Positions 47,684 to 62,656 of a stretch of 64,000 nt of DNA are shown piece by piece. The stretch is from Candidatus Parcubacteria bacterium. GTDB taxonomy: Bacteria > Patescibacteriota > Saccharimonadia > UBA4664 > JBIOIQ01. The position numbers and the translations under genes are program-made. The stretch is taken from contig OY970378.1 in assembly GCA_963718875.1 (NCBI GenBank), forward strand, positions 68,396 through 132,395. Reading direction: 5' to 3'. Position 1 is the first letter of the stretch, and every line of letters begins with the position of its first letter. A model generated the notes under the pieces. That model had not been told where the DNA came from and made no database searches. It was given only the letters and a program-made list of their open reading frames with translations.

Positions 47684-47684
47684 G

Positions 47685-47990
47685 ATGGCTGTTGAATTTT
47701 TAGCTCAAGCCCAACAGCTTTGTCGGACTGCGGCTGATTGTGGCCTTCCTAATGTGGCTTTTACCAGCAGTACTTTGGGTCAAATTATTAGCTTGTTATA
47801 TAAGGTGTTGGCGGCCTGCTCAATTTTATTTCTTATGTTTGGGGCCTTTAAATACGCTGCTTCAGGTGGCGACTCAGCGGGTATAAAAAACGCCAAAGAA
47901 ACAATTTTGTACGCAGTTTTTGGCCTGATTATTAGTCTTTTAGCCTTTGTTGCGGTAACATATCTATCGAACAGAGCGGGAGGATTATAG
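47685..47990 (+). CDS. VirB2/TrbC-like pilin paralog 3
   Basis: 101 aa; ...FGAFKYAASGGDSAGIKNAKETILYAVFGLIISLLAFVAV. Confidence 0.55.
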   Translation: MAVEFLAQAQQLCRTAADCGLPNVAFTSSTLGQIISLLYKVLAACSILFLMFGAFKYAASGGDSAGIKNAKETILYAVFGLIISLLAFVAVTYLSNRAGGL

Positions 47991-48394
47991 TGATTAAGCT
48001 AAAATCGGCATTTTTGACATTGCTTGTGGCTGTTGGCCTAGGCGGTGGATTAAGTGTGGTTCTTCCCTCGCTGGCTTTGGCAGCTGATACGCCTTCGCAA
48101 ATTATCACTACTCAAGCCTGTAAAACCAATCCATCTGCCCTTGGCTGCCGTGCAAACGATAAAGTCTTTGGTGCTGGCAGCATATTTAATAACGGCATAG
48201 CCGTATTGATAGGTTTAATAGCTTCAGTCTCGGTGGTGATGGTAGTAGTTGGTGGCTTGCGTTACGTGCTTTCTGGTGGCGATTCAGCTGGTATAAAAAG
48301 CGCTAAAGATACCATTTTGTATGCATTAATTGGGTTGGGTGTGGCGTTGGTGGCGTTTTTGATTGTTGGGTTTGTAATAGGAAGAATAGGATAA
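47990..48394 (+). CDS. VirB2/TrbC-like pilin paralog 4
   Basis: 134 aa, GTG start overlapping the previous stop by 1 nt; VVGGLRYVLSGGDSAGIKSAKDTILYALIGLGVALVAFLIVGFV. Confidence 0.55.
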   Translation: MIKLKSAFLTLLVAVGLGGGLSVVLPSLALAADTPSQIITTQACKTNPSALGCRANDKVFGAGSIFNNGIAVLIGLIASVSVVMVVVGGLRYVLSGGDSAGIKSAKDTILYALIGLGVALVAFLIVGFVIGRIG

Positions 48395-48395
48395 C

Positions 48396-48812
48396 ATGAG
48401 TATTATGAAACGAAGATTTCGAGATTATATTTATACCTCCGCCTTGCTGGCTCCAGCTGTTTTGCTTGGTGGGCGAGCCCTTGCAGTAGATCCCAACTCC
48501 CCTACAGCGCAGGCTTGCACTGGTATTGGCGGTACGCTTAATGCAGCTGGTAAATGTGTGGTCGCTACCTCTAGCGGCAAGGTTGGTGATCTGGGCACAG
48601 CTTTTAAAGCAGTGGCTAACACGCTCATTTTTGTTGTAGGGGCGATTTCGATCATCATGGTTATTATTGGGGGCTTGCGCTACGTGCTTTCAGGGGGTGA
48701 TTCAGCTGGGATAAAGAGCGCTAAAGATACGGTTTTATATGCCCTCATTGGTGTGGGCGTGGCAATTGTGGCTTATGCGCTAGTTAACTTTGTCATAACT
48801 GCAATCACATAA
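48396..48812 (+). CDS. VirB2/TrbC-like pilin paralog 5
   Basis: 138 aa; IIGGLRYVLSGGDSAGIKSAKDTVLYALIGVGVAIVAYALVNFV. Confidence 0.55.
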   Translation: MSIMKRRFRDYIYTSALLAPAVLLGGRALAVDPNSPTAQACTGIGGTLNAAGKCVVATSSGKVGDLGTAFKAVANTLIFVVGAISIIMVIIGGLRYVLSGGDSAGIKSAKDTVLYALIGVGVAIVAYALVNFVITAIT

Positions 48813-48924
48813 TCCAAATTAATTTTTATTATTCTTATGCTTAAATGTTGTTTTGGCCTAGTCAAGCGTTAGCAATTGTGATACAAAGAAACAGTAAACA
48901 AGCCTTTAAGGAGAACTTATTCAA

Positions 48925-49350
48925 ATGACACAAACAATAAAATCGTTGGGTGGTAGGGCAGCTGGTGCAGCCGTATTAATAGCTACATTTGGTACTGGAG
49001 CATATGCTGGAACGCCAGTAACATGTGACCCTACAACAAGTACCGATCCTATTCAAAGCGGCGTAAACTGCAGTCAGCCTGCAGGTAGGGCTGGAAATTC
49101 CCAACTTTTTGGTGGGACCGGATCTATTTTCCAAACTGTTGCTAATACACTTATTTTCATCGTAGGAGCTGTTTCAGTAGTAATGCTTATCATCGGTGGC
49201 TTGCGTTACGTATTGTCGAGTGGTGAAGCCTCAGCTGTTAAGGGTGCTAAAGACACCATTCTTTACGCCATTGTGGGTATTGTAGTGGCTATTCTGGCCT
49301 TTGCGGCCGTATCGTTTGTGACTGGTCGATTTGGCGAGCCTACTGCTTAA
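48925..49350 (+). CDS. VirB2/TrbC-like pilin paralog 6
   Basis: 141 aa; IIGGLRYVLSSGEASAVKGAKDTILYAIVGIVVAILAFAAVSFV. Confidence 0.55.
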   Translation: MTQTIKSLGGRAAGAAVLIATFGTGAYAGTPVTCDPTTSTDPIQSGVNCSQPAGRAGNSQLFGGTGSIFQTVANTLIFIVGAVSVVMLIIGGLRYVLSSGEASAVKGAKDTILYAIVGIVVAILAFAAVSFVTGRFGEPTA

Positions 49351-49367
49351 GCTTAAAAAGTTTTTAT

Positions 49368-49406
49368 ACAAAAAAATCGCCTCTGGTAATGAGGCGATTT
49401 TTTTGA
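49368..49406. terminator. bidirectional rho-independent terminator (pilin array / hsp20)
   Basis: AAAAAAATCGCCTC-TGGTAAT-GAGGCGATTTTTTTG: perfect 8-bp GC-containing stem flanked by an A-run and a T-run. Confidence 0.8.
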
Positions 49407-50944: not shown

Positions 50945-51020
50945 GCGCTCGTAGCTCAGTGGATAGAGCATCAGCTTGCGGTGCTGGGGGTCGGAGGTTC
51001 GAGTCCTCCCGGGCGCACCA
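50945..51020 (+). tRNA. tRNA-Arg (anticodon read as GCG)
   Basis: Hand-folded cloverleaf: acceptor GCGCUCG/CGGGCGC (one G-U), U8 A9, D-stem GCUC/GAGC, anticodon stem UCAGC/GCUGG with loop UUGCGGU (U33, G37), T-arm GGAGG-UUCGAGU-CCUCC, discriminator A, encoded CCA. Confidence 0.7.
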
Positions 51021-51232
51021 TCGAAAAACACCTGTGTAATTACACAAAATTTTAAAAAAGAGACTTAGCAAAGTCTCTTTTTTTGTATCTAGGGGCACTT
51101 GTCGGGGCAATCAAATGTCAGGCAATTAAGTGAGAAGTTGCTCTATCCCCTTTCGATCGCTCCGCTTGAAGTCTGTAACGTTGCATAGTGATCCAGCTTC
51201 TCGCAGTGTGGTTCAATGCCGATTCATTTTTG
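51015..51232. repeat. att-like ~215-bp repeat E, copy 1 (starts in the tRNA 3' end GCACCA)
   Basis: Contains the 14-bp perfect palindrome TGTGTAATTACACA (51033-51046), an intrinsic terminator (AAGAGACTT-AGCAA-AGTCTCTT + T7, ~51054-51085) and ~130 bp further conserved sequence. Copies at 58451-58668 and 60095-60317 are ~85-90% identical. Confidence 0.8.
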
Positions 51233-51290
51233 CGAGACGCTTTGTTCCGGAGCCTTTACAGATACAACTGGCTTGTGTTCAAATTGATAC

Positions 51291-52376
51291 ATGGAATTTA
51301 TACCAGGATTGCAGTTAAGCGAACTCTTTTACAAAGAGGCAGTTCTGCCGATTCTGGAGGCGAGCTTCCCCCACTTAGCCCATGGGGCTGGGCTTATAGG
51401 TGAGGGGTCGGAGGTGCTCGGGTTTGATGACGAACGTTCAATGGATCACGATTGGGGTCCCAGATGTCAGATTTTTCTGAGCCCTGATGATCACAAGAAG
51501 TTGGCTAGCCAAATCACAGAAGTACTTGGTAAGGAGCTCCCCCGTGATTTTCGCGGGTTTCCTACCCGTTTTAGCGTTTATGAAGATACGGGCGCAAAGC
51601 TTCTGGATCGTAGTGAAAGCGGGCCGGTGACGCACAGAGTTGAAATCGAAAGCATCCCGGAGTTTTTTGGCGGGTATCTGGCATTGGATGTTGATAAAGC
51701 AATGTCTGTCTACGACTGGTTGACCACACCAGAGGAACTCCTGCTTATTGTCACTTCCGGCAAAGTTTTTTCCGACCCTCTCGGCGGACTCCAGCAGATC
51801 CGACAAAAATACTCGTACTATCCGGAGGAGGTGTGGCTGTATTTGCTCGCCTCACAGTGGCGCATAATCAGCCAAGAGGAAGCATTTATTGGTCGCACTG
51901 CGGCGGCAGGGGACGATTTGGGCTCTCGAATATTGACGGCCAAGATGGCTGGCTATTTGATGAAGCTGGCATTTCTAATGGAGAAGAAGTATGCCCCATA
52001 CAGCAAGTGGTTCGGTAAGGCATTTAGTCAGCTTGAAGCTGCAAAGCTGCTGGCTAGCCCTTTGAAATCGGCCCTTGATGCATCTGAATATTCTGAGCGT
52101 GAAGGCTACTTGTCAGAAGCTTATGAAATTGTCGCAGGTATGCATAACCAGCTTGGCATCACAGACGCCATTGACCCAACAGTTCGCTCGCATTACTACG
52201 ATCGACCCTATAAGGTCATCAAGGCCGATAGATTTGTCGATGCCATTGCGAACAAGCTTAAAGGCACTGAGCTAGCCGAGATAGCGGGCATAGGTTCCGT
52301 TGATCAGTTTGTTGCCAACGTTGACCTATTGACCCATCCTGAGCTTTGCCACAGGCTATCTGCTCTATATCTTTAA
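51291..52376 (+). CDS. nucleotidyltransferase-fold protein with DUF4037-like C-terminal region (island cargo)
   Basis: 361 aa; N-terminal GLIGEGSEVLGFDDERSMDHDWGPR resembles the GS...D.D motif of polymerase-beta-type nucleotidyltransferases. Sits between repeat E and repeat F, which are directly fused in the third copy. Confidence 0.4.
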   Translation: MEFIPGLQLSELFYKEAVLPILEASFPHLAHGAGLIGEGSEVLGFDDERSMDHDWGPRCQIFLSPDDHKKLASQITEVLGKELPRDFRGFPTRFSVYEDTGAKLLDRSESGPVTHRVEIESIPEFFGGYLALDVDKAMSVYDWLTTPEELLLIVTSGKVFSDPLGGLQQIRQKYSYYPEEVWLYLLASQWRIISQEEAFIGRTAAAGDDLGSRILTAKMAGYLMKLAFLMEKKYAPYSKWFGKAFSQLEAAKLLASPLKSALDASEYSEREGYLSEAYEIVAGMHNQLGITDAIDPTVRSHYYDRPYKVIKADRFVDAIANKLKGTELAEIAGIGSVDQFVANVDLLTHPELCHRLSALYL

Positions 52377-52380
52377 TCGT

Positions 52381-52605
52381 TTTTGCTCTTGCAGATCTTT
52401 GCTTTCGGCGCGACAATCGCGGTAATTAACGAGAAGTAGTCATGAAGCAGCCCAAACCCCGTTCGCAGCGCCGCGTCAGAGTAACTGGAGTTAAGAAGAA
52501 AGAGCCGAATGTAAAGCTTTTCACATTGGCTCTGATCGAACTAGCAAGGGAGCAGGTGCAAGCTGAGGACAAGAAGACAGGCGACAAATAACGTCTACGT
52601 TACGC
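52381..52605. repeat. ~220-bp repeat F, copy 1 (carries the small basic ORF and ends in the CGCTCATGCTTG box)
   Basis: Second copy at 60318-60545 is ~85% identical and includes a GGCGCGACAATCGCGG inverted-repeat motif. Confidence 0.75.
52442..52591 (+). CDS. small basic protein, 49 aa (duplicated; paralog at 60376-60531)
   Basis: Below the ORF-track size cut-off; my translation is MKQPKPRSQRRVRVTGVKKKEPNVKLFTLALIELAREQVQAEDKKTGDK. The paralog MKQPKPRPQRRVRVAGIKKKEPNVKLFTLALIELAREQMRTEDEKKDKSIT differs mostly by conservative changes, which suggests a real gene. Confidence 0.5.
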   Translation: MKQPKPRSQRRVRVTGVKKKEPNVKLFTLALIELAREQVQAEDKKTGDK

Positions 52606-52693
52606 TCATGCTTGTCTTAAAATCACTGTGCCCTGAGCAGTAAGTGATTCGGTCGACTGGTTTCGAACCACATTCTTTATCTGTCCTTTGGCG

Positions 52694-53341
52694 TTAGGCG
52701 AAGAGACTGTATATGACCGGCTTCTCGGCTCTATGATAAGACACGAATAATCTATCGGAACACAGATTGCCCCAGGACAATACCGACGCCAGGATTTCGG
52801 CTGGCGTCCAACGGTAGGTTACGAACGATGTATCACTTACGGCCGTTGATACGCTCGTTTCCATATGGGAGGTTTGCGGATCAAAGCCCGGGATGAGGGG
52901 CTCATAGGTGAAAATGAGGCTTCCTTTGGAGTTTAGGTGTTTCCCGACCTGCAGTAGCACCTGGGGGAGATCAGGGATAAACTCCAGACTTCCAATGGCC
53001 ACCACAAGGTCAAACAGGCGCGCATCCCTCGCGAGGAACTGCACAAGGTCTTCGGCATGAGTCTCGGCTGAGGGGAACTTCGCCGCAGCTATGTCGATCA
53101 TTGCTGGGGAAATATCCACAGCCACCAAAGTCTGGAGATCTGGATATAGCTCGCATATCTGGCTAAGAGTCTGTCCGGTGCCGCAGCCCAAGTCGAGCGC
53201 CGTCGAAGCTCTGACCGCGCTGGCTAAGAGTTCCTCGCCCAGGACACTGTTTGGTATCCACGCACCATCACCCGTTGCTGCGTCATATAGCGGGGCTAAC
53301 CCATTCCAGTATTTTGCTGTACTCTTATTCAGGTCCACCAT
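52694..53341 (-). CDS. class I SAM-dependent methyltransferase
   Basis: ALDLGCGTGQTLSQI motif I and DLVVAIGSLEFIPD; high-GC gene. Confidence 0.7.
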   Translation of the reverse strand: MVDLNKSTAKYWNGLAPLYDAATGDGAWIPNSVLGEELLASAVRASTALDLGCGTGQTLSQICELYPDLQTLVAVDISPAMIDIAAAKFPSAETHAEDLVQFLARDARLFDLVVAIGSLEFIPDLPQVLLQVGKHLNSKGSLIFTYEPLIPGFDPQTSHMETSVSTAVSDTSFVTYRWTPAEILASVLSWGNLCSDRLFVSYHRAEKPVIYSLFA

Positions 53342-53607
53342 TTAATCCGATTATATACTACGAATAAGGTGGCACTAATTTCGCAAAAGAACAAGTTGCA
53401 GCAGTCGAATCGAGCAAGAGAAATGACGCTAACCAAGCCTACTTTCTCTTTCCCTTATGCTTGGTCAATTGAGCTCAATGTCATATAATGTTGTTTCGGG
53501 TTGACCGGATTGGTTCTTATCCGAATCTGATTTACTTCTGCTTAGCGCTCTGATGAGCCCAGTGCGCTGAGCTTGGGAAGTACCTGAGCCGGCATGGAGG
53601 CAATCCC

Positions 53608-54006
53608 GTGACAATCGGTATCTTCGAAGACGTCCTGCCGGCAGGATGGTCGTCCGATGTTGGCAATCCACCACAGCTCGGCGACGTCATCATGAGCATG
53701 CAGAGCAACCGGTCATTTCCAATCCCCATGCTTCTCGAGGTCACCGATCCATCGGGCATGCTGCCGCCGGAAGAGAGCGTCTACCTTCCGGTGCGTGCGA
53801 CCTCGATCCGCACGGTCTACCCGCAGGGCTGGGACGAGCCCGAGTACGAGGTCGTGGGGTACGTGACTCGCACCAGATCGGAGCGGGAGATCACCTGGGT
53901 TCGGATCGATCTTCGTACGAACGGCGATACCACCATCAAGGAAGCGACGGCGTATCTCCTTGGCCCAGGGGAAGAGATCGGGCTCGATCAGACCATCAGG
54001 AACTGA
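53608..54006 (+). CDS. hypothetical protein (island)
   Basis: 132 aa; preceded by promoter box TATGCTTGGTCA-N17-TATAAT (53455-53492) and followed by hairpin element A (54060-54110). The overlapping Arg-rich 53646-54110 frame is rejected. Confidence 0.45.
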   Translation: MTIGIFEDVLPAGWSSDVGNPPQLGDVIMSMQSNRSFPIPMLLEVTDPSGMLPPEESVYLPVRATSIRTVYPQGWDEPEYEVVGYVTRTRSEREITWVRIDLRTNGDTTIKEATAYLLGPGEEIGLDQTIRN

Positions 54007-54059
54007 GCAAGATTCGGGAGGGCCCCGAGCGGCCGACATCGCCGCGCATCATTGCAAAG

Positions 54060-54110
54060 GCAGGGAACTGGGGTTCGCGCCCCAGTTCCCTGCCCCACTT
54101 TTATGACTAG
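54060..54110 (+). repeat. hairpin element A, copy 1 (GGAACTGGGG-TTCGCG-CCCCAGTTCC + CTGCCCCACTTTTATGACTA)
   Basis: 10-bp GC-rich perfect stem; copies at ~56350-56397 and ~61808-61856, each directly after an ORF stop. Confidence 0.75.
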
Positions 54111-54232
54111 ATACATTGTTAAATAGTCGTTTATGCTTGGCATTAATTCATTTTGGTATTAATATATTCCTACGTTTCAATACGGACCAAACAGCCAACC
54201 TTGGCTAACGTGTTGAACGGTGAGGAGAGTGC

Positions 54233-54568
54233 ATGACAACTGGCGTTTTGACGGATGACGACATCAACGGCAGGCGCAGGATGATTCGTCTCGAACTGCT
54301 CAGTCGCGGCCAAGTCGGCGTGGTTGGTGCGGGGGGCATGGTTCCGATGCAGGAGCTGACTCCCTACGAGCTGCACGAGCACATCGGCAACGTCGGATGG
54401 GAACTCGAAGGCTTGACTCGGACCGACTGGATCAACCTCAGCGCGGCCGAACAGGAGGCCTTCCTGCACAGCATGGACAACCTGGAGAGGTTGCTCGACG
54501 CCGATCCCGAGGCGAGCGTCCCCACGGCACTCGAACTCGGTATCGATCCCAACTTCCTTCTGAACTAG
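54233..54568 (+). CDS. hypothetical protein (island)
   Basis: 111 aa, ~60% GC; upstream TTGGCA-N17-TAATAT box at ~54137-54165; followed by hairpin element B at 54603-54661. Confidence 0.45.
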   Translation: MTTGVLTDDDINGRRRMIRLELLSRGQVGVVGAGGMVPMQELTPYELHEHIGNVGWELEGLTRTDWINLSAAEQEAFLHSMDNLERLLDADPEASVPTALELGIDPNFLLN

Positions 54569-54602
54569 CCCCATCGGCGACGACGCCGAGCTCACCCCCC
54601 GT

Positions 54603-54661
54603 CCTTATTCGCCTCTCAGACAAGGCTCCTCGCCAACTCTGGGAGGCGCCTTGCGTTTAGG
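54603..54661 (+). repeat. hairpin element B, copy 1 (CGCCTCYCAG-N~20-CTGGGAGGCG + CCTTGCGTTT)
   Basis: Copies at 55565-55626, 59299-59355, 59978-60030 (diverged) and 61120-61180, always 10-35 nt after an ORF stop and before the CTCATGCTTGCC promoter box. Confidence 0.8.
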
Positions 54662-54735
54662 CAACCTGTTAAACCCCGCCTGAACCTTTGCGCTCATGCT
54701 TGCCTAATTGAGTTCATATCAGTATTAGTATCTTA

Positions 54736-54823
54736 TGCTCCGCCGCAGCAAACTGAGCACTTCGATTAGCACTCAGCTTGCTGCGAAACCGGAAAGTCCG
54801 GATAAGCGGAGGAGGCTCGTGAT
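54736..54823 (+). ncRNA. conserved structured 5' leader (candidate cis-regulatory RNA), copy 1
   Basis: CTCCGCCGCAGCAAACTGAGCAC-loop-GCACTCAGCTTGCTGCG long helix, CCGGAAAGTCCGG hairpin, then GCGGAGGAGG (SD) whose GCGGAG can pair with the 5' CTCCGC. Second copy at 61237-61319 upstream of an unrelated ORF. Confidence 0.4.
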
Positions 54824-55144
54824 ATGACCGACCAGGCATCAGCTTATCATGTCCCAGTTCTGAGCCACTATGCAATTTGGTACGGACCAAACATCGACGT
54901 TTTGAGCGCTGCCGTTCCATCCCGTGACCCTCGAGGCACGATCAAGCCGGGGGCCGACTACTTCCGGTTCTACGACGTTCTGGAACTTGAAGCGGAAGTC
55001 GATGGGGAGATGGTTCGCTTTTACAGCGGCCCCGCAACTACTCGTCGTTCTATTTTCCTGGGGGTGGCTTCCTTACTGGCGACGATCGTGACAACGCCCT
55101 ACGTCGCCGAGGAATTTCGTTCGAGCTCGACAAGTATCTGGTGA
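54824..55144 (+). CDS. hypothetical protein (island)
   Basis: 106 aa behind the conserved leader. Confidence 0.4.
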   Translation: MTDQASAYHVPVLSHYAIWYGPNIDVLSAAVPSRDPRGTIKPGADYFRFYDVLELEAEVDGEMVRFYSGPATTRRSIFLGVASLLATIVTTPYVAEEFRSSSTSIW

Positions 55145-55192
55145 TCTGGACTCGCTACCGCGTCGTACTCCTGACGGCGGAAGAGCTGGCGG

Positions 55193-55549
55193 GTGCAGAT
55201 GTTGAGTTCCCTCCCCTGGCATCATCCGATGTTGTCTGAGGATCTAGCCACTCTGGCCGCAATTTGGCGAGACTGGCACACTGTGCACTTCGCTCTCGGA
55301 ACCAACAGTGAGCCGGCCGAAATCAAGGTTGTTCAAGAAGCTCACGAGTTCCGCGACCATCCTTCTCTGGCAGAAGCTGCCGACGTGATTATTCCTCTGC
55401 TGACCTGGCTCGATACCAAAGGTCACGCTGTGGAGGATCTGATTGGAGCGGTGGCGGCAAAGATCCATGAGAACATGCGGCGAACCTGGGTGCGTCAACC
55501 TGACGGGACTTTCCAGCATGTCGAAGATTCTGATGAACCAGCCGGCTAA
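55193..55549 (+). CDS. MazG-like all-alpha nucleotide pyrophosphohydrolase (putative)
   Basis: 118 aa; ...VQEAHEFRDH...SLAEAADVIIPLLTWLDTKGHAVEDLIGAVAAKIHENMRR matches the E..E / EEADV-I-LL...G.D...A...K...N..R pattern of MazG/HisE-type NTP-PPases. Confidence 0.4.
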   Translation: MQMLSSLPWHHPMLSEDLATLAAIWRDWHTVHFALGTNSEPAEIKVVQEAHEFRDHPSLAEAADVIIPLLTWLDTKGHAVEDLIGAVAAKIHENMRRTWVRQPDGTFQHVEDSDEPAG

Positions 55550-55665
55550 TGGCCGCAACGATCCGTTCTATTCGCCTCCCAGGCCAAGGCTCCTCGCCAT
55601 TCTGGGAGGCGCCTTGCGTTTTGGGGATTTGTTTCTTGCTCATGCTTGCCTAAAGATTCAAAACG

Positions 55666-55694
55666 TTGACATATTTCAACTTTTAGCATATAAT
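55666..55694 (+). promoter_or_regulatory. consensus sigma70-type promoter (TTGACA-17-TATAAT) inside a conserved CTCATGCTTGCCTAA box
   Basis: TTGACA 55666-55671, 17-nt spacer, TATAAT 55689-55694. Equivalent boxes sit at ~53455, 54137, 54683, 60547 and 61197, each after a hairpin element. Confidence 0.55.
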
Positions 55695-55798
55695 ATGACA
55701 CGGCATTTTTGAAAGGGCTTCGGAGTCTCGCCAGCAGTCTGCTGCTTTTTGCAGGAGCCGCCTGCTGTCCGGGACTCTCACGAAAGGCCTGATTCATA

Positions 55799-56281
55799 AT
55801 GCTGACCTTTGAAGAACTGTTTGCCGAAGTCGTTGTACGCTTCGACGCCGCTCCTGACACCCGCATTGAAGCTGACGGAGTGCTCTATGCAAACGACTAT
55901 GTCCACTTCGCTTGGCTTTTGACTGAAGAGCGCATTACCACGCGGGAGGAAGCGCTTGAACTCATTCAAGACATGGTGCGGAACTATGAAGTTCCGAACG
56001 CATCTCCTAGAGACGGCTTGGAGTTCACCGACTGGGTAGGACTGGCGGTTCAGCTCTTTGTCACCCTGGTCGAAGGGAGGGTTGAAAGTGACCCTGTTTT
56101 GGAACGAGCTGAGCGCAGGCGAAGCGTGTTGGTCTCTGTAGCAACCGAAACTGGTTTGGCCGCTAAGGCCAACCTCGAAGAGAGTGGTTTTACGACCACT
56201 GTGGACTGGGGCAATTTGCTCCTTCTGAGAATCGGAGCAAAGGATCTCGTTCCGGTGCGAGCGCCTGAAGACGAGTCCTGA
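55799..56281 (+). CDS. hypothetical protein (island)
   Basis: 160 aa, followed by hairpin element A copy 2. Confidence 0.45.
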   Translation: MLTFEELFAEVVVRFDAAPDTRIEADGVLYANDYVHFAWLLTEERITTREEALELIQDMVRNYEVPNASPRDGLEFTDWVGLAVQLFVTLVEGRVESDPVLERAERRRSVLVSVATETGLAAKANLEESGFTTTVDWGNLLLLRIGAKDLVPVRAPEDES

Positions 56282-56404
56282 TCCAATAACACTCCATTTC
56301 AACGTTTCCCAGGCTGTTTCGGAGTGAGGCTAGGAGTCCTTGTTCACCGCAGGAGTTGGGGTTCGCGCCCCAGCTCCTGCCCCACTTTATGACTACACAG
56401 CTCG

Positions 56405-56640
56405 CCGCCTGGCGGAACTTCCAGGTTCTTAACGGCAAGAATCAGCTGATTTCTGGATGTTCGGCCAATGTTCGTCAGAGCCTGCCACGGTATAACGACA
56501 AAGAGGGTCTCTTTTTGTAGTTTGTGTAAGCGGGTGTAATCGATGTTGTGCCGGGTCTTAAGCTTCCAGAGTGGAATGATACAGAATACTGATCGCGTCA
56601 TGGATTCCTGGGTTTGAAAGCTGTCCGATTAGGGGCACCA
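56405..56640. repeat. ~230-bp direct repeat D+, copy 1 (ends in the GCACCA core)
   Basis: Near-identical copy at 58224-58452, with partial copies at ~56690-56715 and 60063-60100. Contains the GGAACTTCC palindrome and a terminator-like AAAGAGGGTCTCTTTTT. Confidence 0.75.
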
Positions 56641-56833
56641 ACGTAAGAATTATTCTCAAAACGTGGCTTATCAAAGCCACGTTTTTTGTGGTTTGAATGC
56701 TGTCCGATTAGGTGCCTAATCGAAATGATGACTTGGATGTCCTTGCAGGTATGGTCGAGTAAGTGCGTGATTGCTCAAAGCACAGCTGCCGAGAGCAAGC
56801 TCGACGTAGGCGTTTGCCAAGATAGGCAGTAAA

Positions 56834-57316
56834 ATGGGAACCATGGAGAAATGGTCCCTACCCCCACGGATCAAGATATACGAGGCGCTCGGAGCCATCG
56901 CGGACGGGCGACTGACACTAACGACGCCGGGCGCTGCCACTGTCTTATCCTCTTCTGGCAACAAGACGTACAACGTTACCTACAATGCCGAGACAGGTGA
57001 AGTTACCTCGAATGATAATGGCTCGTATTGGCAAGGATACCTGGGATACCCCGCGATTGCCTATTTCATGGCTAAGGGCATTTTGCAGTACGAGTCAACA
57101 GTCGCGGCGTGGCTCAAAGGAATTGCCTGGAAGGATGTCAACACTAAGTTCGAGAACGACTATGTCCAGACCGAGGCTTTAGTGCGCAGCTATGTCATTG
57201 AAGCAGGAGGCGACCTGGTGGTTCTTGATAGTCAGATCAACAAGACAACACACCAGCTGACGCTCCTTCCTCTCAGGAAGGGCGCTTCCTTGAACAAGCC
57301 CCCTGGGGATTACTAG
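56834..57316 (+). CDS. hypothetical protein (island)
   Basis: 160 aa, lower GC than neighbours, no recognisable motif. Confidence 0.4.
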   Translation: MGTMEKWSLPPRIKIYEALGAIADGRLTLTTPGAATVLSSSGNKTYNVTYNAETGEVTSNDNGSYWQGYLGYPAIAYFMAKGILQYESTVAAWLKGIAWKDVNTKFENDYVQTEALVRSYVIEAGGDLVVLDSQINKTTHQLTLLPLRKGASLNKPPGDY

Positions 57317-57430
57317 GCGAGATATTCTCCAATGCGCCCATTACTCCCCGTGCAACTAACCCCTTGTCCGGCGCTATTTCATATCACATGATCTTGTGAT
57401 ATAACGGCAACAACAACCTTACCAGCGTCC

Positions 57431-57757
57431 GTGAGAACTGACTGGAGGAGACAAAAGCTAAGACGAGGAAATCGATCCATGAAGCGCATCCAGTACGAAC
57501 AACGTTCCAGGCCGATCGCCGCTCTCTGGGCATTCTTGGCCCTAGTACTCAGCCTGCCGATAGTGGGAGGTGCGTGGTTCTTCCTGTCGGCATGGATGGC
57601 GTATAAGTGGGGTGGTGGTTTCTTTAGCCAAAGCCAGCCAATAGCCAGCTGGTATTCCTACGCTTCGTACGGGAGCATTCTGATCGCTCTTGCCATCGAA
57701 GGCGCGATCGTGATATGGGCATATCGTATGGTTCGAAAGCGTACATTGAAGCCTTAA
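57431..57757 (+). CDS. small membrane protein (island)
   Basis: Two to three predicted TM helices (IAALWAFLALVLSLPIVGGAWFFLSAWMAY; GSILIALAIEGAIVIWAY); the true start may be the internal MKRIQYEQ. Confidence 0.4.
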   Translation: MRTDWRRQKLRRGNRSMKRIQYEQRSRPIAALWAFLALVLSLPIVGGAWFFLSAWMAYKWGGGFFSQSQPIASWYSYASYGSILIALAIEGAIVIWAYRMVRKRTLKP

Positions 57758-57859
57758 CCGGCCCCCTCTCTCCCGGTACGTCGGCGACGCTTGCTTTACC
57801 GACTGACTTGTATGTCAAACAAAATGGTGAAACAATTATGACAGTTATTAGGCTATGTC

Positions 57860-58153
57860 ATGAAGAGTTCTTCGCAATCCCCTTATCGTTATTTAATTGC
57901 TGTTGGGATAAGTTTTGCTGCTGTTGTAGAAAGCTGGTGGGTAGTTTCAAAGCTAATCCCTGCTCTCTCAAGCCAGACAGGTATCATGGGGGCGGCACAC
58001 CCTCGTCCTCGGTTTCCTATTTACCTGGCTTGGCTAGTGATGATTGCTGTACTTGGAAGTGCAGCACTTAGCTGGATTAAGTCGAAGTATGCAATCGGGC
58101 TTTTTGCAATCTGTAGTCTCGCGACGTTTATTCTAGCCTTAGCTGCTATTTAG
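57860..58153 (+). CDS. small membrane protein (island)
   Basis: 97 aa, three hydrophobic helices. Confidence 0.4.
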   Translation: MKSSSQSPYRYLIAVGISFAAVVESWWVVSKLIPALSSQTGIMGAAHPRPRFPIYLAWLVMIAVLGSAALSWIKSKYAIGLFAICSLATFILALAAI

Positions 58154-58450
58154 GATCGCTTGTCTGATCCCGTTCCGAACCACACAGAGAAGCAAGAGAA
58201 GTTGCAAACTCAGGGTTCGAACGCCGCCTGGCGGAAGTTCCAGGACCATAGCCGCAACAATCAATCAATTTCTGGACGTTCGGCCAATGTTCGTTCAAGC
58301 CCGCCACGGTATAACGACAAAGAGGGTTTCTTTTTGTAGTTTGTGTAAGCGGGTGTAATCGATGTTGTGCCGGTCTAGGCTTCCTGCGTGGAATGATACA
58401 GAATACTGATCGCGTCATGGATTCCTGGGTTTGAAAGCTGTCCGATTAGG

Positions 58451-58668
58451 GGCACCATCAAATTTCATGTGTGTAATTACACAAAAGTATGGAAAAGAGA
58501 CTTAGCAAAGTCTCTTTTTTGTATTTAGGGGGTAGCCGTCGCATGTATCAATTGCAAGCAACTTAGTAAGAAATCGCTCTACCCCCTCTCGCTCGCTCCG
58601 CTTGAAGTCTGTAATTTTGCATAGTGATCCAACTTCTTGCAATGTGGTTCAATGCCGATTCATTTTTG
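58451..58668. repeat. att-like repeat E, copy 2
   Basis: GCACCATCAAATTTCATGTGTGTAATTACACAAAAG...terminator...GGTTCAATGCCGATTCATTTTT; preceded by D+ copy 2. Confidence 0.8.
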
Positions 58669-58720
58669 AGGGCTTAGGCTTTTGCCACTACGAGTAAGCT
58701 AGAACCCCGTATCCAGCTAT

Positions 58721-59272
58721 TTGTTTCGGGAAGGACATCTGGCTGTGTGTTGGGAGAGAGCAATCAGTGTCTATTTTGGAAGTGAGGGCGGCGGGTGTAC
58801 AATTAATACAATGCATGGATCCACGAGACGTATATCCTCACTGACACTGCTAATAGGTGTGCTGGGAGTTCTTTACGTATCTTGGACTTTGAGCTCTAGT
58901 TTTACCGGCGAACAGAAGGCCGACCCCCAGCTACAAATTCTTCGCCACGATCCAATGGCATCTTGGGATCCCTCTGTTGTAACTGGGACTGAGCAGAGAA
59001 CCGAGCGAGCCTCAAGTGACGGGTTAATAACCGGTACGAACGCCAAGCTCCTGCGCGTTATTCCTCTATCGACTGAGGTTGGTGTACTTGACGAAGCATC
59101 ACGAGCCGCAGCGTCCGCGGGATGGGTATTGCAGGATCGAGCGCAGGCCGATACTATTATTGGTTCCCGAAACATAGAAGCACACGTGGTAACTATTAGT
59201 CTGAGCCTGTTACGACCGCCTGACTCAGGTATCAATGGACCAACTCTTTTGATCAGCCTGACAGGGACCTGA
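58721..59272 (+). CDS. secreted/membrane-anchored hypothetical protein (island)
   Basis: Probable start at the internal MHGSTRRISSLTLLIGVLGVLYVSW (signal anchor); followed by hairpin element B copy 3. Confidence 0.4.
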   Translation: MFREGHLAVCWERAISVYFGSEGGGCTINTMHGSTRRISSLTLLIGVLGVLYVSWTLSSSFTGEQKADPQLQILRHDPMASWDPSVVTGTEQRTERASSDGLITGTNAKLLRVIPLSTEVGVLDEASRAAASAGWVLQDRAQADTIIGSRNIEAHVVTISLSLLRPPDSGINGPTLLISLTGT

Positions 59273-59504
59273 CAGGCTGATCGTCTGTCAGGCAGATGCC
59301 GACGCCTCCCAGGCCAAGGCTTCTCGCCAATCCTGGGAGGCGCCTTGCGTTAAGATCACCCCTTAATAGCAAATGTTGAGCTTCCTATATAGAGTTCAAG
59401 AAAGGCCGTTGGCAAGTAGCTTTTTCTTTGTTTTTATTTTCTCACGTCTCAATATGTACCTATCGCTATTCCGGCGAACTTATTGGGCGGAAGAGGAGCA
59501 CTGA

Positions 59505-59936
59505 ATGACCAACCCGTTCCAGCAGTTGTCTGACGACGAGGTTGCAGCCAGGATAGCTACCTGTCGTCATCTGTTGACCCGGCTCGGCGTAGTCCGCGTG
59601 CACATCGGCCGTGCTTTGCCGATGAGCGAGCTGACCGTTGTCGAGCTCGATGACCGCACCGCCCACATGCAGGCCCTACTCGACACCAAGGGCCAGCCGG
59701 AATCAGTCCGTGACGCAGCAGTGGAAGCCGCTGCCCTGCGCCGCGAGTTCGAGGTCATGGAGTATCTGCTCCAGCACCCCCACGCATCGCTGTTGTCTAC
59801 CGATACCCTCGGGCCTCCGCCCGTTTCGGAGGGTCCCGGCGTGGTGTTGCCAGTCGGAGGTCCTTCGTCCGCAGTGGTGACTCTGTTGCGAGCCAGAAGG
59901 GCTGTTCCCGTCCCTGCCATGGCCATGGCGGCCTAG
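59505..59936 (+). CDS. hypothetical protein (island)
   Basis: 143 aa, high GC, followed by the diverged hairpin element B copy 4. Confidence 0.4.
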   Translation: MTNPFQQLSDDEVAARIATCRHLLTRLGVVRVHIGRALPMSELTVVELDDRTAHMQALLDTKGQPESVRDAAVEAAALRREFEVMEYLLQHPHASLLSTDTLGPPPVSEGPGVVLPVGGPSSAVVTLLRARRAVPVPAMAMAA

Positions 59937-60094
59937 CTGCAACCGATCATCTCCACCTAACCAAGCGACTTCAAGTCGCGACCGCCTCTCACGCAAGGCT
60001 CCTCCTTGCCTGACGGCGTCTTGCTTTAGTCACGAATCACCAAATCACACAAAACAGCCAGAGAAGCCGTGAATTCTGGGTTTGAAAGCTGTCC

Positions 60095-60317
60095 GATCAG
60101 GAGCACCATCAAATTTCATGTGTGTAATTACACAAAAGTATAGAAAAGAGACTTTGCAAAGTCTCTTTTTTGTATTTAGGGCCACTTGTCGGAGGCATCA
60201 AATGTCAAGCAATTAAGTAAGAAGCTGCTTTACCCCTCTGGTTCACTCCGTTTGAAATCTGTAATGTTGCCCAGTGATCCAGCCTCTCGCACTGTGGTTC
60301 AATGCCGAATCATTTTT
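60095..60317. repeat. att-like repeat E, copy 3 (directly fused to repeat F copy 2, 60318-60545)
   Basis: Same palindrome, terminator and core sequence. Here E runs straight into F, whereas copy 1 has 1.15 kb of cargo between them. Confidence 0.8.
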
Positions 60318-60375
60318 TGCTCTTGTAGATATACCGCATCGGCGCGACAATCGCGGTAAATAATGAGATATAGCA

Positions 60376-60531
60376 ATGAAGCAACCCAAACCCCGTCCGC
60401 AGCGCCGCGTCAGAGTAGCTGGAATTAAGAAGAAAGAGCCGAATGTTAAACTTTTCACCTTGGCTCTGATAGAGCTTGCCAGAGAACAGATGAGGACTGA
60501 GGACGAAAAGAAAGACAAGAGTATAACTTAA
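60376..60531 (+). CDS. small basic protein, 51 aa (paralog of 52442-52591)
   Basis: MKQPKPRPQRRVRVAGIKKKEPNVKLFTLALIELAREQMRTEDEKKDKSIT; not in the ORF track. Confidence 0.5.
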   Translation: MKQPKPRPQRRVRVAGIKKKEPNVKLFTLALIELAREQMRTEDEKKDKSIT

Positions 60532-60625
60532 GCGTCCCGCTCATGCTTGCCTAAATAGTTCTTACTTCAGTATAATTAGGCTATTCTTCCGCTTCCGGGC
60601 TTGGCGCTTTGTCTGTCTTATCAGA

Positions 60626-60889
60626 TTGGTAGTGCGCCCGGTCTGGAAATGCCATGACTTGAAGGCTGGAGAAACGATGCCTGATACACAAAATGAAATG
60701 GGCGACCGTCTGCTCAACGGATGTCTTGCCGCCTGGGTCATATTCGGACTTCTCGTCGGCTGGACAGGAGCTTATGAAGGCGGCTGGGAGTTCCTAGCTT
60801 CCGTAAGTGGCTTCTTGGTCACAATTGGTCTAGGAGAGTGGGTGTACGTGTTATTCCCAACATCCCTGCGCACCGCCACGAAGGAGTAA
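60626..60889 (+). CDS. small membrane protein (island)
   Basis: 87 aa, two TM helices; upstream TTGCCT-N18-TATAAT box. Confidence 0.4.
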   Translation: MVVRPVWKCHDLKAGETMPDTQNEMGDRLLNGCLAAWVIFGLLVGWTGAYEGGWEFLASVSGFLVTIGLGEWVYVLFPTSLRTATKE

Positions 60890-60894
60890 TCTCA

Positions 60895-61098
60895 ATGGAA
60901 TCTTTCCTTGTCATCGCAGCGTGGACCCTCGGTGGAGTAATCCTCGGCTGGTTCGCCCCTTACCTATCACTTGAAATCATGAACGTATCTCCGGACACGT
61001 GCGAATACCGTTCGAGCATCACGTTCATGCGATTCTTCACCACGCCTGCCATGGCGGCGTTTTTCCTCCTGACCTATCTCGAGCTCATCCGAGTCTGA
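60895..61098 (+). CDS. small membrane protein (island)
   Basis: ORF 60838-61098; likely start at MESFLVIAAW (ATG 60895); two TM helices; followed by hairpin element B copy 5. Confidence 0.4.
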   Translation: MESFLVIAAWTLGGVILGWFAPYLSLEIMNVSPDTCEYRSSITFMRFFTTPAMAAFFLLTYLELIRV

Positions 61099-61236
61099 GG
61101 GATAGCTAGTCCGCCAAGTTCTATTCGCCTCCCAGGCCAAGGCTCCTCGCCAACTCTGGGAGGTGCCTTGCGTTTTAGGGCCTCAAAGACGCTCGTGCTT
61201 GCCTTTTTAGGCTCATTTCAGTATAAGTACCCTATT

Positions 61237-61319
61237 CCTCCGCCGCAGCAATCTGAGCACTTCTTCCTTAGCACTCAGTTTGCTGCGAAACCGGAAGTAC
61301 CGGATGCGGAGGAGGACGC
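61237..61319 (+). ncRNA. conserved structured 5' leader, copy 2
   Basis: CTCCGCCGCAGCAATCTGAGCAC...GCACTCAGTTTGCTGCG...CCGGAAGTACCGG...GCGGAGGAGG; ~85% identical to 54736-54823. Confidence 0.4.
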
Positions 61320-61781
61320 GTGACAACAGACGGTGCAACCCAAACCATCGAAGAGCTGATGGCGCGCCTTTCGTGGCATACGAATTACGACGTTGAGGTT
61401 TCTGTTCTAAGCGGGATGGGGTTTTCAGCTAAGATCACCGACCCATCCTTCGGTTTGCCCGTCGTGTATGGATTCGGGATCGGCAAAACGGTTGTTGAGG
61501 CGCTCCAAAACGCCGAAAGACATGCGGAAAATCTACGAATGGCTGGGTATGTACCCACCGCTGAGCGGAACCAGCCATGCCTCAGGTGCAACAATGACGG
61601 TTTCTTGCCCGAATCGAGCCATGCAACTGGCGCTACGTGCAGATGCTCTTACGGCCGCAGGGCGCGCTTAGCGGAGCGAGCGTTTCAGGATCGGGGGCAA
61701 CAGACGGACGGTGTCACTCGAGCTTCCTCGAGAAGATCAATGGCTCCGCGAGGAAGATGTCGACGTACTGGTCCGGCTTGA
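61320..61781 (+). CDS. hypothetical protein (island), Cys-rich C-terminus
   Basis: 153 aa, GTG start; followed by hairpin element A copy 3. Confidence 0.4.
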   Translation: MTTDGATQTIEELMARLSWHTNYDVEVSVLSGMGFSAKITDPSFGLPVVYGFGIGKTVVEALQNAERHAENLRMAGYVPTAERNQPCLRCNNDGFLPESSHATGATCRCSYGRRARLAERAFQDRGQQTDGVTRASSRRSMAPRGRCRRTGPA

Positions 61782-62000
61782 TACCCAATCACATGTCCTT
61801 GACCACCGCAGGAACTGGGGTTCACGCCTCAGTTCCTGCCCCACTTTATGACTACAGGACTTCACAGATGGCTCTGTCATCTGTGAGTGTTTATTGAAGC
61901 CTCCCCGTGGACGATGGCGCACGAAAGTCGTCCAATCAGGTGTGTTATAGCTAATCCATTACTTATTGCAAAATGTAATGGTATTTGATAAAGTAATGGT

Positions 62001-62252
62001 ATGAGAACAACGCTTACCATCACTAGTAAAGGGCAGACTACTATTCCGGTTGAGATACGCAAGAAGTTAGGTATTTCAGACGATGGAGGAATTTTATCAA
62101 TTGATTTTAACGAGCAAAAAGGCGCAGCTATTATTACAAAGCCTATGAGTATTGAGCTGCTTAGTGAGATAGTCAGCAAAAATATTCAACCAGGCACTGT
62201 TCCTGTGATAGATGCAGATAGTTATTACCAAGAGCATCGAGGGAAAGAATAA
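62001..62252 (+). CDS. vapB: AbrB/MazE-fold antitoxin (VapB-like)
   Basis: MRTTLTITSKGQTTIPVEIRKKLGI swapped-hairpin motif; stop overlaps the toxin start. Confidence 0.65.
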   Translation: MRTTLTITSKGQTTIPVEIRKKLGISDDGGILSIDFNEQKGAAIITKPMSIELLSEIVSKNIQPGTVPVIDADSYYQEHRGKE

Positions 62253-62656
62253 TGTCTAAGCTGGTTGGTTCGCTAGATGCAAATGTTATTCTAAGACTGC
62301 TTTTAAATGACGTTCCGGAGCAGCATCAAGCAGCTTTGAGGCTGTTCCATGGTGCAAATGGCCAATTTGCCGTGGCAGATACCGCCATTATTGAAGTGGT
62401 TTTTGTGCTGTGCCGAGCTTACGGTTTTACCAGAGAACAAACCCGGCAAGCCGTGGCTGGTTTGATGAAACTTAGCGAACTCAACTTGAATCGAAATGCC
62501 TTTGACCTGGCATTGCCGCTATTTGTAAGTTACCCAGGGTTGTCATTTGAAGATTGCTGTTTATCGGTATACTCCCAGCTCAATGACGCCGAGCCGTTAT
62601 GGACTTTTGATAAAAAACTGGCTAATCAAGTATCGAATGCTCAATTGGCTGCGTGA
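62252..62656 (+). CDS. vapC: PIN-domain toxin VapC
   Basis: 134 aa; LDANVILRLL...D...E...D acidic quartet spacing of PIN domains. Confidence 0.6.
   Translation: MSKLVGSLDANVILRLLLNDVPEQHQAALRLFHGANGQFAVADTAIIEVVFVLCRAYGFTREQTRQAVAGLMKLSELNLNRNAFDLALPLFVSYPGLSFEDCCLSVYSQLNDAEPLWTFDKKLANQVSNAQLAA

Follow-up and report, generated by a model that had tools for sequence, protein, structure and literature searches.

A tRNA-linked island of cassette-like genes in a Patescibacteria-type chromosome, with regulatory modules as probable recombination joints

Downstream of a tRNA-Arg(GCG) gene in the origin-proximal chromosome of a Candidatus Parcubacteria bacterium, small open reading frames (ORFs) alternate with hairpins and promoter-like boxes that share sequence from gene to gene, which raises the question of whether these shared elements only express the genes or also serve to exchange them. 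The stretch analysed here (the window) is 64 kb of contig OY970378.1 (assembly GCA_963718875.1, positions 68,396 to 132,395), and searches within it cover part of that 1.19-Mb source contig. An earlier note, made from the sequence, had placed a cassette-like array at 53449-61232 and likened it to an integron. The observation is real and more structured than that note saw: the island extends from 51021 to 61942 (10.9 kb) and has a tRNA-linked, scar-bounded tandem structure that the note had not described. We favour, with a probability of about 0.6, the reading that it is a tRNA-linked accretion island of autonomous expression cassettes whose regulatory modules double as recombination joints.

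Two hairpins recur in the island. Hairpin B (CGCCTCCCAG-N20-CTGGGAGGCG-CCTTGCGTT; at 54610, 55573, 59303 and 61126) contains a 19-mer, made of its 3' arm and tail, that matches four times in the window (54639, 55602, 59333 and 61156), where shuffling predicts 0.01 matches; a fifth copy at 59983-60027 has decayed, and the five copies originally counted are therefore four good ones and a relic. Hairpin A had rightly been counted at three copies (54059, 56349 and 61808). Its stem of 13-16 bp is longer than first described and is followed by CTGCCCCACTTT(T)ATGACT, a tail with two exact matches against none expected, plus one copy with a 1-nt insertion. All copies of both hairpins lie on the + strand and start 25-67 nt past stop codons, not 10-35 nt as reported. 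Neither hairpin has a copy in the other 53 kb of the window, nor in the backbone parts of L005 and L006, two of the four related metagenomic contigs (L004, L005, L006 and L007) that were informative for comparison.

The pairing of these hairpins is strand-specific. Hairpin A has folding energies of -26 to -35 kcal/mol, and across its three copies and that of L004 the stem shows two compensatory changes (A-U to G-C and C-G to U-A) and several G-U pairs, none of them disruptive. Hairpin B is 95.8% paired across ten copies and varies only by changes of the G-U type. Since a G-U pair is a C-A mismatch on the other strand, the hairpin structure belongs to the + strand transcript, and such pairs would fit + strand terminators, not double-strand or bottom-strand recombination sites. 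The form first given for hairpin B, with its N20 and a second CAAGGC/GCCTTG pairing, was confirmed as two helices of similar energy, with the U-run following the second. An H-type pseudoknot was set aside on geometry (no linker between the 3' arms; 12-nt central loop), and the folding models suggest that the two helices are better read as alternatives. The forms of hairpin B in L005 and L006 carry proper T-runs (AUUUUU in L005), and the B5-type hairpin of L006, GCCTCTCA...TGAGGGGCCCCTTTTTT with a T-run, is a canonical terminator. We infer that hairpins A and B act as intrinsic terminators, GC-rich ones whose U-tract is poor. A third terminator-like hairpin, 'C' (GGGCGCTG...CAGCGCCC then TTCTTC), follows cassettes in the relatives (L005 1369-1389 and 1948-1973; L006 9655-9675) and is absent from the window.

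The box, written CGCTCRTGCTTGYC, is a -35 hexamer extended upstream (CGCTCATGC-TTGCCT-AA). The motif YTYRTGCTTG occurs eight times in the 64 kb, seven of them on the + strand of the island (52605, 53454, 54130, 54693, 55639, 60540 and 61192); the six boxes of the earlier note are all there, and the seventh, at 52605, lies outside its limits. Box identity covers 16-17 nt, is exact in three copies and overlaps the -35 hexamer, and the spacer varies. In six of the seven boxes a -10-like hexamer follows 17-18 nt past the TTG hexamer (TATAAT twice, TAATAT, TATTAG, TATAAG and, at 55642, a weak ACATAT), which upholds the described promoter form except that TATAAT is exact in only two. The box at 52605 is an orphan, with neither a -10 hexamer nor a + strand ORF downstream.

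Between box and ORF stand leaders of 60-110 nt, those without a row of their own in Table 1 lying at 54166-54232, 55695-55798 and 60577-60677. In every predicted fold a CUCC-type stretch further upstream pairs with the Shine-Dalgarno sequence, and the fold z-scores are -2.0 to -4.9 in five of the six leaders and -1.5 in the sixth. The leaders could be translational control elements, for example thermosensors or processing-dependent activators. One 85-nt leader, La, is common to two unrelated ORFs at about 90% identity and has no Rfam match.

These elements are the only intergenic sequence that island genes share. Intergenic homology is limited to short modules (hairpin B, ~50 nt; box, 16-17 nt; one leader, ~85 nt; hairpin A, ~60 nt), and the sequence between them is unrelated. 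A typical gene in units 1, 3 and 4 of the four tandem units described below comprises a box, a -10 hexamer, a leader of 60-110 nt, an ORF and one of the hairpins A and B. A hairpin precedes a box by 14-29 nt at 54610/54691, 55573/55637, 61126/61190 and 54059/54130 and, in L005, at 1273/1338, an arrangement that for hairpin B is found in four intergenic regions, three in the window and one in L005. Hairpin B, box and leader together form a module at 54597-54823 that matches 61122-61319 at about 85% identity, and the ORFs on both sides are unrelated. Most ORFs of the island are indeed unrelated to one another, as had been stated; 54233-54568 and 59505-59936 are paralogues (31% identical, E 6e-8). 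The claim that every island ORF is bracketed by hairpin and box does not hold, as 56834-57316, 57431-57757 and 57860-58153 lack both and 58721-59272 has the hairpin only.

To compare the island with related loci, we used contigs carrying proteins of the family of 54233-54568 and 59505-59936 (the 54233/59505 family) and one contig for the family of 53608-54006. In L004, cassette 1 stands among other neighbours, and homology (53449-54108) begins 5 nt ahead of the box and ends with the final base of TTTATGACT. In L005, cassettes 1 and 2 follow each other as they do in the window; the promoter and the terminator of cassette 1 are different ones there, with a scar in addition, and cassette 2 is homologous from the box to the tail of hairpin B (54130-54658), beyond which come a decayed box (CGCTAATACCTGCCTAA) and an unrelated gene. 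L006 shares the 59505 cassette from its promoter to hairpin B5 (59419-60016), and L007 is homologous from hairpin B3 to scar 3 (59303-60097) and then diverges. In all four comparisons (blastn) the flanks of the homology blocks are unrelated and the blocks end at box, hairpin, scar or promoter edges. Equally, homology between units 1 and 4 of the island itself stops at the 3' edge of a box. The same cassettes occur in differing order and context among relatives. The suggestion of modular gene shuffling thus stands in so far as the modules are the units of exchange, with homology breaking at box, hairpin and scar edges; it is not a wholly distinct kind of system, having a precedent in the promoter-early stem-loops (PeSLs) of phages (PMC2839356, PMC4122927).

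The modules are also conserved. The ORFs have dN/dS values of 0.10-0.39, indicating purifying selection, and in the non-coding flanks 8-17% of ungapped aligned sites are changed, compared with 20-37% for synonymous sites, a change 2-4 times smaller. The flanks are therefore functional. In the mechanism that we propose, each cassette would be transcribed from a sigma-70-type promoter with an upstream-extended -35 element, its leader would pair the Shine-Dalgarno sequence ahead of a small ORF, and GC-rich hairpin A or B would end + strand transcription. Selection would maintain the short modules as regulatory signals, and because they are the sole sequence common to otherwise unrelated neighbours, they would serve as recombination joints at which genes, or the regulatory module itself, are replaced, inserted or deleted. 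Recombination would be homologous and might follow natural transformation. Natural competence is known from Saccharibacteria (PMC10633639) and would be a plausible route for homologous exchange.

The link to the tRNA gene accounts for a second level of organisation. The island consists of four tandem units (51021-56640, 56641-58457, 58458-60108 and 60109-61942). A 30-nt sequence, GGTTTGAAAGCTGTCCGATYAGGRGCACCA, is present at 56611, 58428 and 60079 with degenerate copies at 56690 and 61923, and a pattern search placed all five of these scars on the + strand and inside the island. Aligned with the tRNA gene, the scar resembles a decayed tRNA 3' half, with GGTTYGA, GTCC and GGGNGCACCA in common and a 5-nt insertion. 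About 210 nt of sequence 3' of the tRNA gene (the X-module) is repeated after the scars at 58428 and 60079, giving three copies, and a P-arm of 235 nt precedes the scars at 56611 and 58428 (two copies, 91% identity). We take the GGGGCACCA sequences to be integration scars because L005 has a displaced tRNA-Arg(TCT) 3' end of the same type (AATCCCTCCCGGGGCACCA), 165 nt past the intact gene. The simplest reading is that serial site-specific integrations at tRNA-Arg left scar-bounded tandem units and pushed earlier ones inward; successive integration at a tRNA gene has been described for tRNA-linked islands elsewhere (bioRxiv 10.1101/2020.12.28.424599). No recombinase domain of any kind was found in Pfam scans of the island ORFs and of all window ORFs of at least 180 aa but two (4718-5395 and 19249-20388, both far from the island). 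The recombinase for unit integration must act in trans or have been lost; the units would be either remnants devoid of an integrase or elements mobilised in trans.

L005 offers further observations of this kind. Its region 7171-7412 holds a mini-insertion of ~165 nt between tRNA-Arg(TCT) and the displaced copy of its own 3' end, at ~7530 there is another tRNA-end scar (CCTCCACCA plus GTTCGTTTT...), and the gene of a large serine recombinase (7763-9432) abuts tRNA-His. The 3' ends of tRNA genes appear to be frequent integration targets in this lineage. The coordinates of all features of the island are collected in Table 1.

Table 1. Features of the tRNA-linked island, in order along the window.
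Feature	Position	Strand	Basis
tRNA-Arg(GCG), left island boundary	50945-51020	+	ARAGORN; Rfam tRNA 65.4 bits
X-module copy 1, includes terminator AAAAGAGACTTAGCAAAGTCTCTTTTTTT	51021-51232	+	repeat families D3/D4; alignment; blastn
DUF4037 protein gene, cargo; closest homologues share only 54% identity, some in named Chloroflexi metagenome-assembled genomes	51291-52376	+	Pfam
49-aa basic ORF copy 1, 84% identical to 60376-60531	52442-52591	+	ORF call, alignment
Box 0, CGCTCATGCTTGTCTTA, orphan; unit 4 homology ends at its 3' edge	52603-52619	+	motif search, blastn
Class I SAM methyltransferase gene, sole gene of the island on the minus strand	52694-53341	-	Pfam
Box 1, CTTATGCTTGGTC, 17 nt, TATAAT; conserved in L004	53454-53489	+	motif search
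Structured leader of cassette 1, Shine-Dalgarno paired; conserved in L004 and L005	53490-53607	+	z -3.0
Cassette 1 ORF, 132 aa, GC3 75%, no assigned function	53608-54006	+	dN/dS 0.10-0.19
Hairpin A1, 16-bp stem and tail CCACTTTTATGACT; L004 homology stops at 54108	54059-54108	+	folding, blastn
Box 2, TTTATGCTTGGCA, 17 nt, TAATAT; L005 homology begins at 54130	54130-54165	+	motif search, blastn
Cassette 2 ORF, 111 aa, GC3 79%, paralogue of 59505-59936	54233-54568	+	dN/dS 0.26
Hairpin B1	54610-54658	+	repeats, 19-mer, folding
Box 3, CGCTCATGCTTGCCTAA, then TATTAG	54691-54728	+	motif search
Leader La copy 1, predicted three-way junction pairing the Shine-Dalgarno sequence	54738-54823	+	z -3.6
Cassette 3 ORF a, 106 aa, possibly frameshifted	54824-55144	+	ORF call
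Cassette 3 ORF b, weak MazG-like pyrophosphohydrolase match	55193-55549	+	PF04447 E 0.002; PDB 7ody E 0.0013
Hairpin B2	55573-55622	+	repeats, 19-mer, folding
Box 4, GCTCATGCTTGCCTAAA, then perfect TTGACA-17-TATAAT at 55666-55694	55637-55694	+	motif search
Cassette 4 ORF, 160 aa	55799-56281	+	ORF call, no family
Hairpin A2	56349-56397	+	repeats, folding
Long P-arm copy 1, ends in scar 1; closes unit 1	56403-56640	+	repeat families D7/D8/D10; 91% identity over 238 nt
Scar 1, GGTTTGAAAGCTGTCCGATTAGGGGCACCA	56611-56640	+	repeat family
Partial scar copy after terminator 56658-56685	56690-56715	+	repeat family
Unit 2 ORFs 56834-57316, 57431-57757 and 57860-58153; no box, no hairpin A/B	56834-58153	+	ORF calls
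Long P-arm copy 2, ends in scar 2; closes unit 2	58222-58457	+	repeat family, blastn
Scar 2	58428-58457	+	pattern search
X-module copy 2, opens unit 3	58458-58668	+	repeats, alignment, blastn
ORF, 183 aa, shorter start possible; hairpin only, no box	58721-59272	+	ORF call
Hairpin B3; L007 homology begins here	59303-59351	+	19-mer, blastn
ORF, 143 aa, GC3 73%, paralogue of 54233-54568	59505-59936	+	dN/dS 0.28-0.39
Hairpin B5, decayed; intact in L007 (15-bp stem)	59983-60027	+	alignment
Scar 3, end of unit 3; L007 homology stops here	60079-60108	+	pattern search, blastn
X-module copy 3, opens unit 4	60109-60318	+	repeats, alignment, blastn
51-aa basic ORF copy 2	60376-60531	+	ORF call
Box 5, CGCTCATGCTTGCCTAAA, 18-nt spacing, TATAAT	60538-60576	+	motif search
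Leader (conserved in L006) and two small membrane-protein ORFs, 60678-60889 and 60896-61098	60577-61098	+	ORF calls, folding
Hairpin B4	61126-61176	+	19-mer, folding
Box 6, CGCTCGTGCTTGCCT, 17 nt, TATAAG	61190-61227	+	motif search
Leader La copy 2	61238-61319	+	z -4.9
ORF, 153 aa	61320-61781	+	ORF call
Hairpin A3	61808-61856	+	repeats, folding
Degenerate scar 5, GAAAGTCGTCCAATCAGGTG, right island boundary	61923-61942	+	pattern designed with this copy in view

The genes that the island carries have few recognisable relatives. Scans of the island ORFs against Pfam, PHROG, PADLOC and NCBIfam returned only DUF4037, the methyltransferase and the weak MazG-like match; PHROG gave no matches except weak ones to the MazG-like ORF, PADLOC matched no defence or immunity model, and a PDB sequence search yielded only the MazG-like match to 7ody. 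Several further ORFs encode small membrane proteins. The family scans recognised no DNA-binding or sigma domain in any island ORF, and a profile search with the 51-aa ORF found only itself. The reading of 51291-52376 as an integrase was wrong, its Pfam family being DUF4037, and its homologues, at most 54% identical and widespread, are therefore uninformative on the context of the element. AlphaFold2 models of 54233-54568 (pLDDT 52) and 53608-54006 (pLDDT 46) were too poor for fold searches. ORF 59505-59936 has its own TTGGCA-17-TTTTAT promoter at about 59415-59443. Upstream of ORF 57431-57757, an operator-like perfect palindrome, TATCACATGATCTTGTGATA (57360-57400), overlaps a TATAAC hexamer, and the regulatory signals of unit 2 therefore differ from those of the other units. 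For cassette 3 ORF a, the Logan assembly of run ERR12037361 calls a 138-aa ORF (54824-55240) that overlaps the next gene by 11 nt; the copy in the window may carry a frameshift or an assembly indel.

The island differs from its surroundings in composition, with 52-57% GC against 43-49% in the backbone. The GC3 of its ORFs ranges from 38% to 79%, and the cargo is therefore compositionally heterogeneous; the genome has about 46% GC, and some cargo ORFs reach a GC3 of 73-79%. The 54233/59505 family counts only six proteins in 5.8 billion, and an HMMER scan of 1.84 billion representatives gave 14 matches at E <= 0.001, its own members included. Nine distant relatives that we inspected are Ala/Arg/Asp-rich, and one examined contig (L009) has 65-72% GC. 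On L009 the homologue (3368-3877) lies among spaced small ORFs of no known family, with a short intergenic repeat (AAYGTRCCG..AGCGGCATTTC) at 3953, 4612 and 7013; the locus may be a mobile element of Actinobacteria that has a repeated intergenic signal of its own. These compositional hints that some cargo came from high-GC organisms are speculative.

By its gene content, the host appears to be a small-genome, Patescibacteria-type bacterium. Pfam scans of the backbone identified mnmE, yidC, dnaA, dnaN and recF, and the order towards the island is a type IV secretion system (T4SS), an array of VirB2-like pilins, comF and then tRNA-Arg. The T4SS includes PrgI (39574-40599), a VirB4-like ATPase (36681-38549) and a lysozyme/M23 protein (32867-34045), and downstream of this dnaA-proximal system the pilin paralogues (PF18895) occupy 46632-49400, with repeats at 48230, 48648 and 49174. 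Patescibacteria have been described with this layout of a T4SS and pilin arrays near the origin (PMC12102498). L006 has the same order as the window (TrbL, pilins, HSP20, comF, tRNA-Arg(GCG) and island), and the content of its island differs. An Rfam scan, at the gathering cut-off and at E <= 5, gave the tRNA only. The anticodon GCG is found on the island-flanking tRNA-Arg in both the window (50945-51020) and L006 (8410-8486). Bacteria normally read CGN codons with an ACG anticodon (inosine-34); the GCG anticodon is unusual and may reflect a loss of tRNA editing in the lineage. A cyanobacterial host was set aside, since no HIP1 sites were found and the T4SS layout of the backbone is that of Patescibacteria. 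A minus-strand ORF of 904 aa (43808-46522) with no Pfam family neighbours the T4SS and pilin genes and has, at its 3' end, a run of about 31 perfect GGCGGT repeats (43812-43997). A vapBC pair (MazE-like and PIN; 62001-62656) is the right flank of the island, and in L007 a PIN gene (1295-1669) lies on the opposite strand directly after a copy of hairpin B, so that toxin-antitoxin genes border the island in both.

Several points weigh against the exchange of cassettes at their regulatory modules. Unit 2 and part of unit 3 are off the pattern, with neither box nor hairpin A or B between 56.4 and 59.3 kb. Of the covariance check proposed for hairpin B, the pairing held; covariation fell short of significance, 71 of 500 shuffles giving at least the observed value, as there is very little variation among the copies. 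Both hairpins have poor U-tracts, and since the U-run of hairpin B follows its alternative helix, the mode of action of that hairpin is uncertain. Promoter and terminator functions are read from sequence alone, a box of 16-17 nt is short for RecA-type recombination, and conservation by selection alone could create apparent breakpoints. The comparison rests on four related contigs, most of them short, and no recombinase, excision product or circular intermediate was seen.

The conserved modules could instead be the signature of a regulon, in which a regulator or sigma factor recognises CGCTCATGCTTGCC, the terminators are selected, and the mosaic comes from ordinary indels in which the modules take no part. 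An exact identity of 16-17 nt that overlaps the -35 hexamer and leaves the spacer free would suit such a factor, as would the purifying selection on the non-coding flanks and the small basic ORF of 49-51 aa that directly precedes the box in units 1 and 4. However, DNA-binding or sigma domains were recognised in none of the island ORFs, and selection alone explains neither why unrelated ORFs abut identical modules on both sides nor why the breaks fall at module edges in four independent inter-genome comparisons. As a full account of the locus this is unlikely, and it is compatible with cassette exchange at the modules, not exclusive of it.

Alternatively, the island could be what is left, after decay, of the early or accessory region of an integrated phage or plasmid, or of several, with their native 'moron' layout, inherited repeats and no shuffling on the chromosome. 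It lies at a tRNA gene with att-like direct repeats, is richer in GC than the backbone and heterogeneous in GC3, holds many ORFans and has a MazG-like gene of a kind typical of phages. No capsid, terminase, replication, relaxase or integrase gene is present, though, and the weak PHROG matches concern the MazG-like ORF only. Searches of IMG/VR found no hairpin A, no hairpin B, no box with a -10 hexamer and no relatives of two cargo proteins; one scar match of 21-25 nt, inside an ORF of a phage contig of 65% GC (L008) with no other similarity, was discarded as chance. Comparison of the island with plasmid and phage collections (blastn) gave no match, and scans of metagenome DNA for hairpin B and the scar returned nothing, from a collection evidently without the samples that hold L004-L006. 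The differing order and context of the cassettes among relatives also speaks against inherited repeats. A decayed phage or plasmid is possible as the origin of the units; as the whole explanation it is a minor possibility.

A site-specific system like that of integrons, with hairpins A and B as analogues of attC folded from a single strand, a recombinase encoded elsewhere and an incidental box, is improbable. The ORF-plus-palindrome periodicity in one orientation recalls it, the homology blocks do stop at hairpin edges, hairpin B is conserved in its loop and not only in its stem, as would suit a protein-recognised site, and L005 has its large serine recombinase about 7 kb away. Nevertheless, no tyrosine or serine recombinase was found within the scope of the Pfam scans given above, and no attI and no RYYYAAC / GTTRRRY core was detected. 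The absence of the GTTRRRY core, already pointed out in the earlier note, was confirmed after every hairpin, the sequences following hairpin B being GTTTAGG, GTTTTGG, GTTAAGA and GTTTTAG. The stems are perfect or vary by G-U pairs specific to the RNA strand, without the bulged extrahelical bases typical of attC, and breakpoints fall also at the edges of box and leader, which are not palindromic. Each hairpin travels with the ORF upstream of it, as a terminator would. The likeness to integrons drawn earlier therefore reaches only as far as a one-directional array in which an imperfect palindrome comes after each of a series of small, mostly unrelated ORFs and cassettes are the units of gain and loss; the island lacks IntI, attI and the R''/L''-L'/R' architecture, and its cassettes have their own promoters and leaders, where integron cassettes are mostly promoterless and share a common Pc, and hairpins that seem to behave as RNA terminators. 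That hairpins A and B are REP/BIME-type palindromes scattered genome-wide, which they resemble in being intergenic, GC-rich, palindromic and multi-copy, is very improbable, although the earlier note had named this as the finding that would refute it, given their single orientation, their absence from the rest of the window and from the backbones of L005 and L006, and a search of 185,579 species genomes in which the exact hairpin B 19-mer had only three single matches, in unrelated Bacteroidota (chance level; ~4 expected by a rough calculation), and no genome with multiple copies.

Among known systems, the closest in operation to these exchangeable cassettes appear to be the PeSLs of T4-type phages, in which a composite of a sigma-70 promoter and a stem-loop terminator precedes ORFans in hyperplastic regions, and in which recombination causes the insertions, deletions and replacements that separate close phage relatives (PMC2839356; PMC4122927). 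The island likewise has sigma-70-like promoters and stable stem-loops upstream of small ORFans in a hypervariable region, and its motifs are the junctions between close relatives (four here). It differs in lying on a bacterial chromosome beside a tRNA gene, with dnaA and a T4SS near, and not in a lytic phage genome; its hairpin is upstream of the promoter and separable from it, whereas the PeSL stem-loop overlaps the -35 and -10 elements or sits between them; its -35 extension is the GC-containing CGCTCATGC in place of an AT-rich UP region; and its cassettes have, in addition, long leaders in which the Shine-Dalgarno sequence is predicted to pair. PeSLs are characterised by residence in a T4-type phage genome, by promoter and terminator activity and by the formation of mini-circles, whereas the island is known from its sequence. 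By this analogy, the island would work like a PeSL system without being a member of that phage family.

Other systems share single features with the island. Phage morons (HK97 and lambdoid) are autonomous promoter-ORF-terminator units in prophages. In both, every gene is transcribed separately, from a promoter ahead of it to a terminator behind it, but the island has no prophage backbone, and the promoters and terminators of its different units share sequence. Cis-mobilisable elements of streptococci are an example of tRNA-linked accretion. The tycheposon islands of Prochlorococcus (bioRxiv 10.1101/2020.12.28.424599) are tRNA-adjacent too, with direct partial tRNA-like repeats that mark successive integrations and degenerate units without integrases, the older ones pushed inward. 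Of the hallmarks of such islands, we found the tRNA boundary and direct repeats resembling a tRNA 3' end, and no element-encoded integrase in the window. The units here are very small (1.6-5.6 kb) and contain no integrase remnants, the scars share only GCACCA and a decayed T-arm with the resident tRNA, and no such cassette architecture has been described inside those islands. The rAID-1 arrays of Bacteroidales, which combine a conserved XerD-family recombinase with orphan type VI secretion immunity genes (bioRxiv 10.1101/471110), are similar as arrays of small genes with skewed GC and repetitive intergenic sequence 'reminiscent of integrons'; neither the recombinase nor immunity genes are present or detectable in the island.

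Patescibacteria have tiny, streamlined genomes with few recognised mobile elements, and how they gain accessory genes is poorly understood. ORFans set in interchangeable frames of promoter, leader and terminator suggest a simple, homology-based turnover of genes that would fit natural competence. A bolder extension, which we hold to be unlikely, is that the island is a recombinase-independent platform for gene capture, in which expression modules act as portable homology arms and transformed DNA is slotted into the tRNA-linked array and expressed at once. Donors would then include high-GC Actinobacteria or their mobile elements, cultivated Saccharibacteria being known to live on Actinobacteria (PMC10633639); this is hinted at because cargo with a GC3 of 73-79% stands in a genome of about 46% GC and because the distant relatives of the 54233/59505 family are Ala/Arg/Asp-rich, one of them on a contig of 65-72% GC. 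For the emerging genetics of Patescibacteria, the island is a source of candidate native promoter, leader and terminator parts, and it would extend the PeSL principle, in which regulatory motifs serve as recombination joints, from lytic phages to a bacterial chromosome.

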